Origin: Eledone cirrhosa
Lineage: Eukaryota
DNA: 64,000 nt
Direction of reading: 5' to 3'
NCBI GenBank assembly: GCA_964016885.1
Contig: OZ024761.1
Coordinates: 8,122,001 to 8,186,000, forward strand
Of the stretch, positions 34,995-61,349 are shown in pieces (the stretch's first letter is position 1; each line of letters begins with the position of its first letter). The notes beneath the pieces were generated by a model. The model saw nothing but the letters and a program-made list of their open reading frames with translations, did no database searches and was not told the origin of the DNA. A program made the position numbers and the translations under genes.

Positions 34995-35322
34995 AGGCAC
35001 ATGGCTTAGTGGTTAGAGCATTGGCCTTGCAATCGAAAGGCTGTGAGTTCAATTCTCAGACCGGGTGAGCAAGACACTTTATTTCACATTGCTCCAGTTT
35101 ACTCAGCTGTAGAAATGAGATGATGCGGACTGGGTTCCCTATCATTCCACTGCAAAGTGGTCGTGGAGGTGCCACGGCAAAAAAGCACCCAGCACTCCCT
35201 GTAAATGGGGTTGGTGTTAGGAAGGGCATCCAGCTGTAGAAATCAAGCCAGAATCAGTTCCCGTCTCACTCTTGCAAGCAGGGGAAAGAGGACGTAAAAG
35301 TGAAATGATGATGAAATGATAA
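34995..35322 (+). mobile_element. tRNA/CORE-like SINE with bipartite RTE tail
   Basis: Same family as 6846-7187 with a small internal deletion. Its tail runs directly into the microsatellite block. Confidence 0.85.
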
Positions 35323-35869
35323 TATATATATATACACATATACACATATATATATATATACATACACACACATATACATACATACATACATACATACATA
35401 CATACATACATACATACATACATACATACATACATACATACATACATACATACATACATACATACATACATACATACATACATATATATATACATATATA
35501 TATACATACATACATACATACATACATATATATATACATATATATACATATATATATATATATACATATATACATATATATATACATATACATATATATA
35601 TACATATACATATATATATATATATATATACATATACATATATATATATATACATACATACATACATATATATATATATACATATACATATATATATATA
35701 CATACATACATACATATATATATATATATACATACATATATATATACATACACACACATATACATACATACATACATACATACATACATACATACATACA
35801 TACATACATACATACATACATACATACATACATACATACATACATACATACATACATATATACATACAT

Positions 35870-36257
35870 TGAAAACGTGTTCTGTTGTGGAGATCAGCTG
35901 CCCACTTGATGTAAACGTTGTCAGAAAAATACAGGAGAAGGAGGACATCTACGGACCATTGATGAGGAGCTTACAAATCCAGTAGCCAAGATACACCTTT
36001 AGCTTCATACCCATCATTATTGGTGCTACGGGTTATATACCAACCCGCTTGGACCAAAGTATGACCGAACTTGGATTTGCGGACAAAAAGCGCAGCTCCC
36101 TAATTCATAGTCTACAAATGGCTGCGATAGCTGGCACCTTCAAAATATGCAAAACATTCTTGCGATTCAAGGGATGACAATTTCTTTTCTTTTACAACCT
36201 TGCCACCAGGAAGGTGGCCGGTCAAAAAAATATACTCGAAATTAAGAGAAAGAGAAA
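35870..36257 (+). mobile_element. 5'-truncated R4/Dong-like (restriction-like endonuclease) non-LTR retrotransposon fragment
   Basis: 35872-36177 translates [56 protein letters not shown]...[18 protein letters not shown], the E-x-x-x-P / K..Y / P(I)IIG pattern of RLE domains. One internal stop at 35983. Not in the ORF track. Confidence 0.75.
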
Positions 36258-37036
36258 ACATACATACATACATATATATATACATACATACATATATATA
36301 TACATATATATATACATACATACATACATACATATATATATACATATATATACATATATATATATATATACATATATACATATATATATACATATACATA
36401 TATATATACATATACATATATATATATACATATATATATATACATATACATATATATATATATACATACATACATACATATATATATATACATATACATA
36501 TATATATATACATACATACATACATATATATATATATATACAAACATACATATATATATACATACATATATATATATATATATATACATACATACATATA
36601 TATATACATACATATATATATATATATATATACATACATACATATATATATACATACATATATATATATATATATATACATACATACATATATATATACA
36701 TACATATATATATATATATATATATATACATACATACATATATATATATATATATATATATACATACATACATACATATATATATATATATATATATATA
36801 TATATATATATACATACATATATATATATATATATATATATATATATATACATACATACATATATATATATATATATATACATACATACATATATATATA
36901 TATATATACATATATACATATATATATACATATATACATATATATATACATATATACATATATATATACATATATACATATATACATATATACATATATA
37001 CATATATACATATATACATATATACATATATATATC

Positions 37037-37300
37037 TACATTATGAAGAGAGAAGAAACATTTAGATATAATTAGTAATAAAATGTATCATACCTAAACT
37101 GTTCCTAAATTCCTCGACTACGTAGTTTCGTGGCATAAACAAAAACAATATATCAAATATTATATATATATATATATATATATATATATATATATATACA
37201 TACAAAAACAATATATCAATATATATATATATATATATACAAACATATATATATATCAATATATATATATATATATATACAAACAAAAACAATATATCAA
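37037..37300 (-). mobile_element. solitary arm of Penelope-like family 2 with stuttered junction
   Basis: 37037-37157 matches 42343-42463. AAACAAAAACAATATATCAA is re-iterated among the TA runs up to ~37300. Confidence 0.75.
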
Positions 37301-37644
37301 ATATTATATATATATATATATATATATATACATACATACATACATATATATATACATACATATATATATATATATATATATACATACATACATATATATA
37401 TATACATACATATATATATATATATATATATACATACATACATACATACATATATACATACATACATACATACATATATATATATATATACATACATATA
37501 TACATACATACATACATATATATATATACATACATATATACATACATACATACATACATATATACATACATACATATATATATATATATATATATATATA
37601 CATACATACATACATACATACATATATATATACATACATATATA

Positions 37645-38252
37645 TGGTGGCTGCCAACTCGTTTTCGAGTACGGCCACTACTTTATATCCATGTAGGAGA
37701 ACCCCTACCGATGCGCTGAACGAGTGTGACTTTTTAGTCCAGCCAGCGACTTGAAAACTCTGGTACAAACACTACACTTGTGACAATTACTGACACATAG
37801 TGCTGGGCACATGGTACCATGTGACGACAAGTGCAGAGAGATCTCCAGATATAAAGCAATGCCTGTGCCGTGAAGCTTTTATAGTGAGCAAAGGCACTGC
37901 ACAAAGCCAATGCCACTCTCTTAACCAAGATGATATTTACCAAAAAGAAGAACAAGTCAACATCATTGGATACCATCAGGGTTGCAGGTGTTATATCAGA
38001 GTTTTCCTTCTCCTAGAATTCTGCCTTGACAAAGGCTAAGGGGTCATCTCTCCCGGTGATTTTGGATGGCCATTGACTCTTAAGAGCTCCTTTGCCCTTT
38101 GACAGGTTTTGTTTTTAGTCCTGCAGGATGTCCAAAGTCACCCTCCTCACCAAGAAACCTTGGTGGGGTTGCCAGTTTAGTCGCCAACGACCCGACCATG
38201 GGACAGGTTGTACTGGGATACATGTTACCAGTAGCACCAACTGGTGACCTGA
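37645..38252 (-). mobile_element. ~610-bp non-autonomous RTE/BovB-like derivative, copy 1
   Basis: Contains the RTE 5'-UTR-type motif CTAGGAGAAGGAAAACTCTGA and a terminal C2H2 remnant [25 protein letters not shown]. Three more near-identical copies in the window. Confidence 0.75.
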
Positions 38253-57960: not shown

Positions 57961-58376
57961 TACATATATACATACATATATATATATACATACATACATA
58001 CATACATACATACATACACATATATATACATACATACATACATATATATACATACATACATACATATATATAGATACATATATATATATATATACATATA
58101 TATATATATACATACATACATATATACATACATACACATATATATACATACATACATATATATATATATACATACATACATATATATATATACATAAATA
58201 TAGATACATATATATAGATACATATATATATATATACATATATATATATATACATATATATATATATACATATATATAGATACATATATATAGATACATA
58301 TATATAGATACATATATATAGATGCATATATATAGATACATATATATAGATACATATATATAGATACATATATATA

Positions 58377-58984
58377 TGGTGGCTGCCAACTCGTTTTCGA
58401 GTACGGCCACTACTTTATATCCATGTAGGAGAACCCCTACGGATGCGCTGAACGAGTGTGACTTTTTAGTCCAGCCAGCGATTTGAAAACTCTGGTACAA
58501 ACACTACACTTTTGACAATTATTGACACATAGTGCTGGGCCCATGGTACCATCTGACGACAAGTGCAGAGAGATCTCCAGATATAAAGCAATGCCTGTGC
58601 CGTGAAGCTTTTATAGTGAGCAAAGGCACTGCACAAAGCCAGTCCCACTCTCTTAAACAAGATGATATGTACCAAAAAGAAGAACAAGTCAACATCATTG
58701 GATACCATCAGGGTTGCAGGTGTTATATCAGAGTTTTCCTTCTCCTAGAATTCTGCCTTGACAAAGGCTAAGGGGTCATCTCTCCCGGTGATTTTGGATG
58801 GCCATTGACTCTTAAGAGCTCCTTTGCCCTTTGACAGGTTTTGTTTTTAGTCCTGCAGGATGTCCAAAGTCACCCTCCTCACCAAGAAACCTTGGTGGGG
58901 TTGCCAGTTTAGTCGCCAACGACCCGACCATGAGACAGGTTGTACTGGGATACATGTTACCAGTAGCACCAACTGGTGACCTGA
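58377..58984 (-). mobile_element. non-autonomous RTE derivative, copy 3
   Basis: Near-identical to 37645-38252. Confidence 0.8.
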
Positions 58985-59316
58985 CATATATATATATACA
59001 TATATATAGATACATATATATAGATACATATATATAGATACATATATATAGATACATATATATAGATACATATATATAGATACATATATATAGATACATA
59101 TATATAGATACATATATATATATACATATATATATATACATATATATATATACATACATATATATACATATATATACATATATATACATACATATACATA
59201 CATACATACATACATATATACATACATACACATACATACATATATATATACATACATATACATACATATATATATACATACATACATATATATATACATA
59301 TATATACATACATACA

Positions 59317-59922
59317 TGGTGGCTGCCAACTCGTTTTCGAGTACGGCCACTACTTTATATCCATGTAGGAGAACCCCTACCGATGCGCTGAACGAGTGTG
59401 ACTTTTTAGTCCAGCCAGCGACTTGAAAACTGGTACAAACACTACACTTGTGACAATTATTGACACATAGTGCTGGGCCCATGGTACCATGTGACGACAA
59501 GTGCAGAGAGATCTCCAGATATAAAGCAATGCCTGTGCCGTGAAGCTTTTATAGTGAGCAAAGGCACTGCACAAAGCCAGTCCCACTCTCTTAACCAAGA
59601 TGATATTTACCAAAAAGAAGAACAAGTCAACATCATTGGATACCATCAGGGTTGCAGGTGTTATATCAGAGTTTTCCTTCTCTTAGAATTCTGCCTTGAC
59701 AAAGGCTAAGGGGTCATCTCTCCCAGTGATTTTGGATGGCCATTGACTCTTAAGAGCTCCTTTGCCCTTCGACAGGTTTTGTTTTTAGTCCTGCAGGATG
59801 TCCAAAGTCACCCTCCTCACCAAGAAACCTTGGTGGGGTTGCCAGTTTAGTCGCCAACGACCCGACCATGAGACAGGTTGTACTGGGATACATGTTACCA
59901 GTAGCACCAAGTGGTGACCTGA
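59317..59922 (-). mobile_element. non-autonomous RTE derivative, copy 4
   Basis: Near-identical to 37645-38252. Confidence 0.8.
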
Positions 59923-60477
59923 CATATGTATATATATACATACATACATATATACATACATACATACATATATATATACATATATATACATACATATATA
60001 TATACATATATATACATACATATATATATATATATATACATATATATATATATATATATATACATACATATACATACATATACATACATACATATACATA
60101 CATACATATACATACATACATACATATACATACATACATACATATACATACATACATATACATACATATATATACATACATATATATACATACATATATA
60201 TACATACATATATATACATACATATATATACATACATATATATACATACATATATATACATACATACATATATATATACATACATACATACATATATACA
60301 TACATACATATATATACATACGTACATATACATGCATACATATACATGCATACATATACATGCATACATATATATACACATACATATATATACATACATA
60401 TACATACAGACATACACATACATACATATTCATACATACATACATACATATATACATAGGAGATATATATATGTATA

Positions 60478-60963
60478 CATCATCATCATCATCATTTTAC
60501 GTCCGCTTTTCCCTGTTTGCAAGGGTGGGACGGGTCTTATTCAGCACAGCATCTCTCCACTCGTCACGGTCCCTCGTCATCTCCACCATGAGCTTCAATG
60601 ATCTGAGGTCTGTTCTCACCACCTCCGCCCATGTTTTTCGTGGTCTACCTCTACCACGTCTTCCTTCAACTGGCAATTCCTGGCACTTCTTCACCCATCG
60701 GTCATCCTCCATGCGCATCACATGTCCATACCACCTCAGTCTCCTCTCCCGTACACTACAGTCTATCCCTCTCAGACACAGTTTCTCTCTCAACACATTT
60801 ATGCTGGGTCGTTCACGCACATTTACACTGCACATCCAACGGAGCATGCTTGCCTCATTTCTCTCCAGCCGTCGCATATCCTCTGCAGTTGCTGCCCATG
60901 TCTCACTACCATGCAGCATCGCGCTCCTCACACAGGCATCATACAACCGGCCTTTCGTACGCA
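60478..60963 (-). mobile_element. 5'-truncated copy of the RTE LINE
   Basis: Near-identical to the 3' ~480 bp of the 44364-47570 element, with a (TGA)n tail. Confidence 0.92.
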
Positions 60964-61349
60964 TATATATATATATGTATACATATATATATATATATAT
61001 GTATATATATGTATACATATATATATATATATATGTATATATACATATATATAATAATAATAAAAAATATATATAGAGAGATTACATATTAGTACTTGTC
61101 TCAATGGAAGATCTGACCTTGTTTAATCACTGCTCCCAAACTGCGTAATACATGTTAAGTTTTGAGATCGATAGTGTTTGATTTAGCAGAAGAAGTAATT
61201 TATATATAGGGAAATCTTTTACCATTTCATTACTGTATTTCTAATTAAATACATTGTACTAGAATTCATTAATAAAGAATCTGGCGAGATTTACTAAAAT
61301 TATTTCATAGTATTTTTAATATTACTTCACAAAAGGTTCTTATATCAAA

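Follow-up and report, generated by a model that had tools for sequence, protein, structure and literature searches.

A 26-kb array of retroelement pieces joined by polar TA/TACA microsatellite within an AKAP10 intron of Eledone cirrhosa

The window, meaning the whole 64,000-nucleotide stretch of Eledone cirrhosa DNA analyzed here, is gap-free (0 N) and carries exon matches to AKAP10; the 12 exon matches of this gene all lie in order on one contig and one strand. The matches that flank the intron of interest are located at 62434..62565 on the upstream side (minus strand, aa 593–636 of P0002) and at 32393..32599 on the downstream side (minus strand, aa 629–696 of P0002). Between them lies an array (35322..61053, no strand assigned) in which a polar (TA)n/(TACA)n tract is cut by 14 non-nested inserts, bordered by a SINE tail that stops at 35321 and a final tract that stops at 61053. 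The initial annotation had placed the block within an AKAP10 intron and described it as essentially devoid of unique DNA from 35322 to about 61052. Both points are borne out, as the flanking exons are colinear on both sides and TA/TACA tract and repeat copies known at other loci account for 25,703 of 25,731 bases. Tract makes up about 41% of the array (10,315–10,717 of the 25,731 bases, by the tract definition used), and the non-tract remainder contains only 28 bases that do not match copies at other genome loci, the longest unmatched piece being a 12-bp echo of the CR1-B 5′ end. The proposed count of about 14 inserts, each with tract on both sides, was also accurate: 14 lie inside, in addition to the boundary SINE. 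None of the 14 interrupts another, and unrelated families are linked end to end, with between-family ORF identities of 21–39%. Identity of the inserts to their nearest relatives ranges from 94.8 to 100%, and they are of different ages. The block of retroelements and microsatellite is therefore confirmed as a real feature of the sequence. An Rfam scan of 31–64 kb returned, in the 150 rows listed of 275, miRNA and snoRNA matches that fall under the gathering score and are driven by the repeats.

Two of the families are CR1-like LINEs. Family A (48082..52184, minus strand) contains ORF1, an APE-RT ORF2 with one 5-bp deletion, and a tail ending in TA; at least 1061 candidate copies are found in the genome. 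Family B (53831..56637, plus strand) is 5′-truncated with an open APE-RT frame, is 99.9% identical to a copy elsewhere, and has a 5′ junction that is echoed with TA between the echoes (53831–53920). A separate family B 3′ fragment (56861..57300, minus strand) sits tail to tail with this long copy at 94.7% identity. Both families possess the AP endonuclease and RT in ORF2 and the short tandem-repeat tail of the CR1 group, and within the window ORF1 is present in family A only; we provisionally label them CR1 on the basis of C-terminal motifs. The RTE-type LINE (44366..47567, minus strand) retains an intact 1020-aa frame with an AP endonuclease, an RT and a PHD finger, and a 5′-truncated RTE 3′ fragment (60478..60961, minus strand) is 98.1% identical to it and 98.3% identical to a copy elsewhere. 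The single APE-RT ORF and short-repeat tail match the features of the RTE clade, with a 3′ end that runs first into (TGA)n and then often into TA.

The Dong-like 3′ fragment (35870..36258, plus strand; R2-group, RLE-type) is 99.7% identical to a copy elsewhere and represents a 4.2-kb element with a single ORF that sits in (ACAT)n. Its 1174-aa ORF matched RVT_1 and zf-RVT only, and its best solved relatives are R2 proteins; clade-named relatives were absent among the 120 homologues listed of 234. Like R4/Dong elements, it combines a single ORF, RT and CCHC finger with a C-terminal motif, identified by eye, that is presumably the restriction-like endonuclease, and it has no AP endonuclease. All 20 of its 5′ flanks are C-polar tract and 30 of 30 3′ ends are followed by ACAT; the Dong-like element targets (ACAT)n of one strand rather than TA sequence of any kind.

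A Penelope-like family A fold-back end (39909..40314) carries a hammerhead-core motif on both arms. Its relatives adjoin RT and GIY-YIG-like ORFs, domains called by motif since Pfam named neither ORF, so that family A pairs a pLTR fold-back linked to an RT/GIY-YIG ORF and a hammerhead core with a (TA)n target. Family B, probably also Penelope-like, is represented by a fold-back end (42347..42852) and an end fragment (37035..37300), a 124-bp piece after which its last 10–25 bases are echoed repeatedly, interleaved with TA (37140–37300). Head-to-head copies of family B that are 98–100% identical occur at random locus L212; no ORF was found, nor a hammerhead core by pattern, and a genome search with family B gave zero matches although copies are present in the sampled loci. 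Four copies of a 606-bp retroposon lie on the minus strand: copy a (37645..38252), with a constant 3′ end and predicted stem-loop at its low coordinate; copy b (57401..57958), 5′-truncated and the most diverged; copy c (58377..58984), with TAGATACA dialect on both sides; and copy d (59317..59922). This element is constant at the 3′ end and variably truncated at the 5′ end, one end being kept in 38 of 43 incidental copies and the other in 16. Bipartite RTE-derived retroposons have 5′ and 3′ parts that match an autonomous RTE (PMC5786205). The 606-bp element had no BLAST match to the RTE of the window, and an RTE partner was not found in the sampled loci; the term RTE derivative used in the initial annotation is a tentative one. 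Finally, the boundary SINE (34996..35321, plus strand) ends in an RTE-type (TGA)n tail and belongs to a high-copy family (4402 candidates), and a second SINE-like fragment (43013..43417, plus strand) has a (GAT)n tail and is 99.3% identical to a copy elsewhere.

The main tracts measure 98–2034 bp as assembled, in agreement with the 0.1–2 kb first described. They include tract 1 (35323..35868; 96 CA, 0 TG), a 1.66-kb tract (38253..39909; 199 CA, 2 TG), a 2.03-kb tract (40313..42346; 260 CA, 3 TG), a tract of CACATACA dialect that resumes beyond the RTE and beyond CR1-A (47568..48081), and a 1.65-kb tract of CACACATACA dialect (52185..53830; 224 CA, 1 TG). Of 18 called tracts, 16 have C on the plus strand; the two non-polar tracts are a 28-bp tract at 53856 (1 CA, 1 TG) and the last tract, of mixed polarity (60956..61053; 4 CA, 4 TG). 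The initial annotation had stated that C lies on the plus strand whatever the orientation of the insert. The uniform polarity stands, but independence from orientation does not extend to the Dong-like and 606-bp elements, which are strand-specific genome-wide and whose orientation therefore follows tract polarity. In 400 kb of random DNA, neighboring polar tracts agree in 18 of 22 pairs within 200 bp, 23 of 35 at 200–1000 bp, 30 of 64 at 1–3 kb and 46 of 92 at 3–10 kb. Tract cover stayed at or below 32% in all 53 random 10-kb pieces. The uniform polarity and high tract cover of the array are beyond chance. A gene-wide or regional strand bias was rejected as the cause of polarity, as agreement is at chance level past 1 kb; G-on-plus tracts elsewhere in the same gene also contradict a gene-wide bias.

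The local dialects (TACA, TACACA and others) noted earlier are real and continue across the inserts of the window (mean 0.87 versus 0.74, 0 of 5000 permutations), which is also visible in a run-length view of the tracts, and they change gradually along tracts. Tracts 1 and 2 have a 117-bp exact stretch in common, the longest among 91 tract pairs. Local alignment of the tract pairs across the Dong-like insert (287) was not better than controls (247–284). A tract-only duplication across this insert is suggested.

Association of each family with tracts across the genome was scored with window copies removed and a tract of 20 bp or more required at the 3′ flank. The family samples comprise the 40 best matches per search and thus the youngest copies, with CR1-A and Dong-like copies coming mostly from two chromosomes. 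As background, tracts occupy 8.8% of a 400-kb and 11.8% of a 130-kb sample. Outside the window, the 3′ end borders on tract in 29 of 29 CR1-A, 29 of 29 CR1-B and 24 of 29 Dong-like copies, along with 23 of 24 for Penelope-like A and 16 of 28 for RTE (one end not found). On the 5′ side a tract is found in 20 of 20 Dong-like copies, in 19 of 20 CR1-B copies at the aligned end (the 20th at its longer end), and in 13 of 20 CR1-A copies at the aligned end, plus one by eye, with six lacking a call. The 606-bp element has tract on both sides in 25 of 29 copies, never G-polar, and the SINE on both sides in 5 of 19 and on either side in 13 of 19. Flanking by TA/TACA is thus far above the 9–12% background for these families. 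The suggestion that unrelated clades converge on one microsatellite holds for five families at nearly all sampled sites and only in part for RTE (16 of 28) and the SINE (5 of 19 on both sides), and the Dong-like target, (ACAT)n of one strand, is narrower than TA/TACA. In random DNA, most of the older RTE relatives have no adjoining tract. Around CR1-B copies, 4 of 10 neighborhoods of 28.5 kb have 36–59% tract cover (37% in the window), and comparable arrays are found at other places in the genome. The block is one clean instance of a genome-wide pattern rather than a singular locus.

If inserts split existing tracts, the two flanks of one insert should be alike, and they are. The dialect cosine of the two flanks of a CR1 insert is 0.83, versus 0.36 between copies (39 loci, 0 of 5000 permutations), and polarity agrees on both sides in 22 of 22 loci with two polar flanks (18 of 40 were mixed or uninformative). 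This likeness in dialect and polarity indicates that inserts split existing tracts; together with the genome-wide tract association and the colinear AKAP10 exons, it gives good support to the earlier idea of a landing pad split by insertion. Near-identical CR1-B 3′ ends have differing dialects and both polarities. Among the four 606-bp copies, three have nearer relatives on other contigs than among the other window copies, and for the fourth the distances are about equal. A paralogous-flank empty-site test at 47 loci yielded zero clean cases, and no long target-site duplication was seen at CR1 junctions in 25 loci. Transduction of donor tracts at the 3′ end was considered and rejected.

We therefore favor, with a probability of roughly 0.7, a model in which the 14 retroelement pieces, joined only by TA/TACA, arose as elements inserted one after another, for the most part independently, into a single ancestral tract of one polarity. 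Each insertion would split the tract, and slippage would then likely regrow both halves into fresh targets. AP, restriction-like and GIY-YIG endonucleases would each nick alternating TA/TACA DNA. CR1-like A and B, with tails ending in TA, could prime in either direction, and the Dong-like element and 606-bp retroposon would read (ACAT)n strand-specifically while facing opposite ways. The uniform C strand would be inherited from the founder tract, and CR1-like elements likely favor regions whose tracts are long already. Regrowth after insertion is likely, judging from the junction echoes and the single exact 117-bp repeat found on either side of the Dong-like insert, and from the clustering of long tracts and arrays together with slippage echoes at junctions we infer that the tract is likely self-reinforcing. 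For the 606-bp element, age and tract length gave a rho of 0.35 (p = 0.064, 29 loci), which we do not count as support.

The alternative that survives best concerns the kilobase tracts at CR1 copies. Summed flanking tract reaches at least 1 kb in 28 of 40 CR1 copies (medians 1.4 and 1.7 kb, the 3′ flank being measured up to 1.5 kb at most), versus 0 of 20 Dong-like, 1 of 20 RTE and 3 of 29 606-bp copies. A CR1-like element might land in a short tract, where stuttering of the RT or a repair polymerase at both junctions would make kilobase tracts from the local seed. The 28 of 40 exceed a length-weighted background of 3–11% and a regional expectation of 51% (p = 0.012), of the six tracts longer than 3 kb, five abut a CR1 end, and at 53831–53920 and 37140–37300 echoes of element ends alternate with TA. 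In maize, TAFTA sites of 6–8 bp are cited as growing to (TA)50 per side (PMC5907723). However, 10 of 21 kilobase-long tracts near CR1-B copies touch no CR1-A or CR1-B end, as do both of the two in random DNA; the long tracts are regionally clustered (outer flanks hold 14 in 200 kb, versus 2 in 530 kb, although some continue a CR1 flank); dialect drifts gradually along tracts; and the junctions lack long target duplications. We consider such stutter unlikely. In a related and tentative idea, to which we give slightly more room, the two CR1-like LINE families would make landing pads for themselves, insertion into a short tract setting off kilobase-scale synthesis of repeat on either side with the local seed as template. 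If it were true, retrotransposition would be a main source of the longest microsatellites in a genome that is 9–12% TA-type tract, and would feed a guild of unrelated retroelements.

The other explanations fare far worse. Elements could have inserted anywhere, brought or seeded the repeat as a 3′ tail and survived where tracts are harmless. ACAT invariably follows the Dong-like 3′ end, TA often follows the RTE (TGA)n, and CR1 LINEs reportedly seed microsatellites in squamates. Yet 5′ truncation points also adjoin tract, near-identical copies differ in dialect and polarity, and the 5′ dialect equals the 3′ dialect, which is impossible for a tail; this match already largely refutes seeding and retention, which we regard as highly improbable. 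A mis-join of the assembly through low-complexity sequence, or inflated tract lengths, is just as improbable: tracts present up to 2 kb of low complexity and none is spanned by public short-read contigs or RAD reads, but the 12 ordered AKAP10 matches on the same contig and strand, the continuation of dialects across inserts, the dependence of tract length on family inside one assembly and the gap-free window all speak against it. Least probable of all is multiplication of a few inserts by local tandem or segmental duplication via tracts, for although three 606-bp copies lie at ~940-bp spacing, RTE, CR1-B and Penelope-like B are each present twice and a tract-only duplication is suggested, the four 606-bp copies differ by 8–19 substitutions, have no private variant in common and do not form a clade among 33 copies, and the second RTE and CR1-B pieces are each a 3′ end that carries a tail of its own, the CR1-B piece being inverted and 5% diverged. 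Local duplication may lie behind the Penelope-like B piece at 37035.

Serial insertion into a shared tract would bear on how the bulk of an octopod genome is organized, with unrelated retroelements sharing a renewable non-coding target and stacking without mutual destruction. The strong TA targeting of CR1-like AP-endonuclease elements can be tested in vitro, as intact young copies exist, and since flanking tract length differs tenfold between equally young families, it becomes testable whether insertions create or find long microsatellites. In squamates, CR1-like LINEs are likewise said to be tied to abundant microsatellite; in Eledone, by contrast, tract flanks the element on either side and is a property of the site, not of the element tail. 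Within the literature searched, we did not find a near-complete (TA)n association of CR1 with kilobase tracts described, nor a cephalopod description.

Two of the individual associations have known counterparts. Microsatellite-specific non-LTR families include Dong (R4 clade) on (TAA)n, Mino, Kibi, Koshi, Togen and HERO (PMC3812793, PMC4640811). The Dong-like element resembles these as a single-ORF R2-group element with strand-specific microsatellite insertion, a likeness drawn from features and not from a tree, but (ACAT)n is not among the targets described in the relevant parts of those papers. Hydra, Naiad and Neptune are Penelope-like elements on (TA)n (Craig et al. 2021, PMC8557442). Family A is Hydra-like, with fold-back ends in (TA)n, an RT and, after it, a GIY-YIG-like domain whose motif contains no cysteines, and it shows no notable difference from the elements described there.

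The closest parallel to the whole array is the SaTar arrays of guayule, rice, sorghum and citrus (Valdes Franco et al. 2018, PMC5907723). In these arrays, unrelated families are joined by microsatellite, often (TA)n, in a linear, non-nested fashion, with variable compound flanking repeats and suspected expansion on insertion. Similarly, microsatellite flanks most genomic sites of the Eledone families, more weakly for RTE and the SINE. However, SaTars are small non-autonomous plant MULE DNA transposons that form few-kb clusters in the examples given there (PMC5907723), and whereas SaTars proper are MULEs with terminal inverted repeats, the members found here are RT-encoding or 5′-truncated retroposons. 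The Eledone array consists of animal retroelements with three endonuclease classes and some intact ORFs, joined by kilobase linkers over 26 kb with one polarity. The block works like a SaTar array but is not one, and its architecture is already known from plants.

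Retroelements of several families share TA/TACA tract as a target in the block at window 35322-61053: inserts split the tracts, some members are strand-specific, nesting is absent (0/14 inserts broken by another) and the pattern recurs genome-wide. The block lies within a single AKAP10 intron, since 12 AKAP10 exon matches are colinear on a single contig and a single strand. The protein-to-genome matches next to the block are located at 32393-32599 and 62434-62565 (minus strand), and the minus-strand exon at 32402-32590 shares 90% identity with Octopus bimaculoides AKAP10, which makes the host an octopod. 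The window contains 0 N bases. The neighboring AKAP10 intron is mostly filled by a 23-kb satellite (8229-31191; 461 copies of a 50-bp unit, 94% matches).

Tract makes up 10,315-10,717 of the block's 25,731 bases, and tract plus sequence with matches at other loci accounts for 25,703, in agreement with the initial annotation, which described essentially no unique DNA and about 14 inserts. We count 14, with a SINE at the left edge in addition: one RTE with an intact 1020-aa frame, one RTE 3′ fragment, one copy each of two CR1-like families (CR1-A and CR1-B), one inverted CR1-B 3′ fragment, one Dong-like 3′ fragment, three Penelope-like end pieces from two families, one SINE-like fragment and four copies of a 606-bp retroposon (a-d: 37645-38252, 57401-57958, 58377-58984 and 59317-59922). 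The clade labels CR1, R4/Dong and Hydra are provisional, being derived from domain layout and motifs rather than trees. The RTE frame (44395-47454) has a PHD-type finger directly past the RT domain. At 56189-57300, a 223-bp tract separates two CR1-B 3′ ends placed tail to tail, creating a 440-bp intronic inverted repeat; another sampled locus (L002) likewise carries an additional CR1-B 3′ end in the opposite orientation.

Elsewhere in the genome, most of these families abut tract far more often than expected from background cover. The background figure is 8.8% for a random sample of 40 pieces of 10 kb, taken mostly from large chromosomes, and 11.8% for 13 such pieces drawn from small chromosomes. 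Among the best 30 matches per family (Penelope-like A, 25; SINE, 20; window copy excluded), which are the youngest copies of each, a tract of at least 20 bp follows the 3′ end in 29/29 other copies of CR1-A, 29/29 of CR1-B, 24/29 of Dong-like, 23/24 of Penelope-like A and 16/28 of RTE, with one further RTE end not located. On the 5′ side, examined in 20 copies per family, tract flanks Dong-like in 20/20, CR1-B in 19/20 (the 20th, the longest copy, has tract at its own, longer end), CR1-A in 13/20 (one more by eye, the other six ends not settled) and RTE in 11/20. The 606-bp element has tract at both ends in 25 of 29 copies. Association is weaker for the SINE (both sides in 5/19, tracts short), and most of the older RTE relatives found in random DNA have no tract next to them. 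A high-copy repeat outside the block, at 61349-61932, may likewise favor tracts: 9277 reads from one RAD run extend from its left end into a TA-like consensus (agreement 0.49).

The tracts were initially thought to carry C on the plus strand in nearly all cases, whatever the insert orientation. The first part holds for 16 of 18 block tracts, the other two being short and non-polar. Because polarity agreement between neighboring tracts in random DNA is at chance level beyond 1 kb (30/64, 46/92), 26 kb of one polarity requires a common origin. The second part is limited to the CR1-like elements, since the Dong-like and 606-bp elements are strand-specific. CR1-A is polarity-indifferent (11 C, 10 G) and CR1-B leans toward C (15 C versus 4 G, 11 mixed or none; L001-L030), both counted on 3′ flanks with the window copy included. 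Sampled copies of the Dong-like element, a 4.2-kb single-ORF member of the R2 group, always lie in (ACAT)n in a single orientation. Of 43 incidental copies of the 606-bp element, 38 retain one end and 16 the opposite end, so the element's sense strand is minus in the window. Its 3′ end has a predicted stem-loop, its orientation is the reverse of the Dong-like element's and, in the window's orientation, a G-polar flanking tract was never seen among sampled copies. All five block copies of these two elements are oriented as predicted. No match links the 606-bp element to the window's RTE, and no partner element was found at the loci sampled in this genome. The 606-bp element occurs in 11/20 Dong-like loci (L191-L210, 8 kb) versus 5/40 random 10-kb pieces, and the copies at these loci are opposite-facing on (ACAT)n. 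Its 3′ stem-loop layout (37645-37700) is common to other families (L126, L135, L232), which have paired stem changes, judged by eye, and also terminate in ACAT or TA runs.

The inserts probably arrived mostly independently. The four 606-bp copies are 8-19 substitutions apart with no private variant in common; three have closer relatives elsewhere and the fourth is equidistant. Best identities of the inserts to a copy elsewhere range from 94.8% to 100%, which fits arrival over time. The block is not a singular locus. Tract cover of ten 28.5-kb CR1-B neighborhoods is 8-59%, and four reach at least 36% (window, 37%); one holds a 7-kb tract plus CR1-B, RTE, SINE and 606-bp pieces. Tracts of at least 1 kb total 14 across the 200 kb of outer 10-kb flanks of these neighborhoods versus 2 across 530 kb of random DNA. 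A larger array at L159 with L312/L313 (contig G000:C7, about 27.10-27.13 Mb) is 59% tract, mostly G-polar, and its 7-kb tract adjoins a CR1-B copy.

Summed flanking tract reaches at least 1 kb at 28/40 CR1-like copies (medians 1.4 and 1.7 kb; 3′ side measured to 1.5 kb at most, one case hinging on an unsettled 5′ end), compared to 0/20 Dong-like, 1/20 RTE and 3/29 606-bp copies. The length-weighted expectation for kb-long flanks is 3-11%, and 51% inside CR1-B neighborhoods (p=0.012 for 28/40 against the latter). Either CR1-like families prefer tracts that are already long or their insertion lengthens them. Preference is consistent with kb-long tracts that touch no CR1-A or CR1-B end (10/21 in CR1-B neighborhoods, 2/2 in random DNA), and long TA repeats can form cruciforms acted on by nucleases, as described in an excerpt of PMC12972899. 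It is unlikely that insertion-coupled synthesis is the main source of tract length, though CR1 ends are in contact with five of the six tracts longer than 3 kb, echoes of element ends alternate with TA at 53831-53920 and 37140-37300, and TA targets expand at maize TAFTA insertions (cited in an excerpt of PMC5907723). Paralogous-flank comparison at 47 loci yielded no empty site at an insertion point, and none of the public short-read contigs or RAD reads examined crosses a whole tract.

The tract belongs to the insertion site, not to the element. Dialect cosine between the 5′ and 3′ flanks of the same CR1-like copy is 0.83, versus 0.36 between copies (39 loci, 0/5000 permutations), and polarity agrees at 22/22 loci with both sides polar (40 examined). 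CR1-B copies with near-identical 3′ ends have differing dialects and both polarities. The local dialects noted initially are seen, and within the window they carry across inserts (cosine 0.87 versus 0.74): the TAGATACA dialect flanks 606-bp copy c on both sides and the CACATACA dialect continues across RTE and CR1-A. Insertion into existing tract fits, because both flanks of one copy match in dialect and polarity. This match excludes the tract as the element's own tail, and 3′ transduction of a donor tract is excluded by the same-copy dialect match and the dialect variety among near-identical copies.

We give a shared-tract mechanism as a whole a probability of roughly 0.72. Alternating TA/TACA DNA would be nicked by three endonuclease classes, with priming helped by element tails ending in TA or ATGT; tract halves would then regrow by slippage, and the regrown tract would provide positive feedback for further insertion. 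Of the self-reinforcing landing pad first proposed, the shared target and split tracts are observed, and re-expansion and feedback are putative.

Dong and other elements are known to target microsatellites (PMC3812793, PMC4640811), Naiad and Hydra elements are known to target (TA)n (PMC8557442), and RTE derivatives of bipartite type have been described (PMC5786205), all according to excerpts of these sources. The literature searched held no cephalopod description of such arrays; one may exist in sources beyond its scope, namely Repbase, supplements and most subscription journals. In architecture the block is like the plant SaTar arrays, whose members, in the excerpt of PMC5907723, are DNA transposons; the block is a real retroelement version of such microsatellite-linked modular arrays, and one that is general in this genome.
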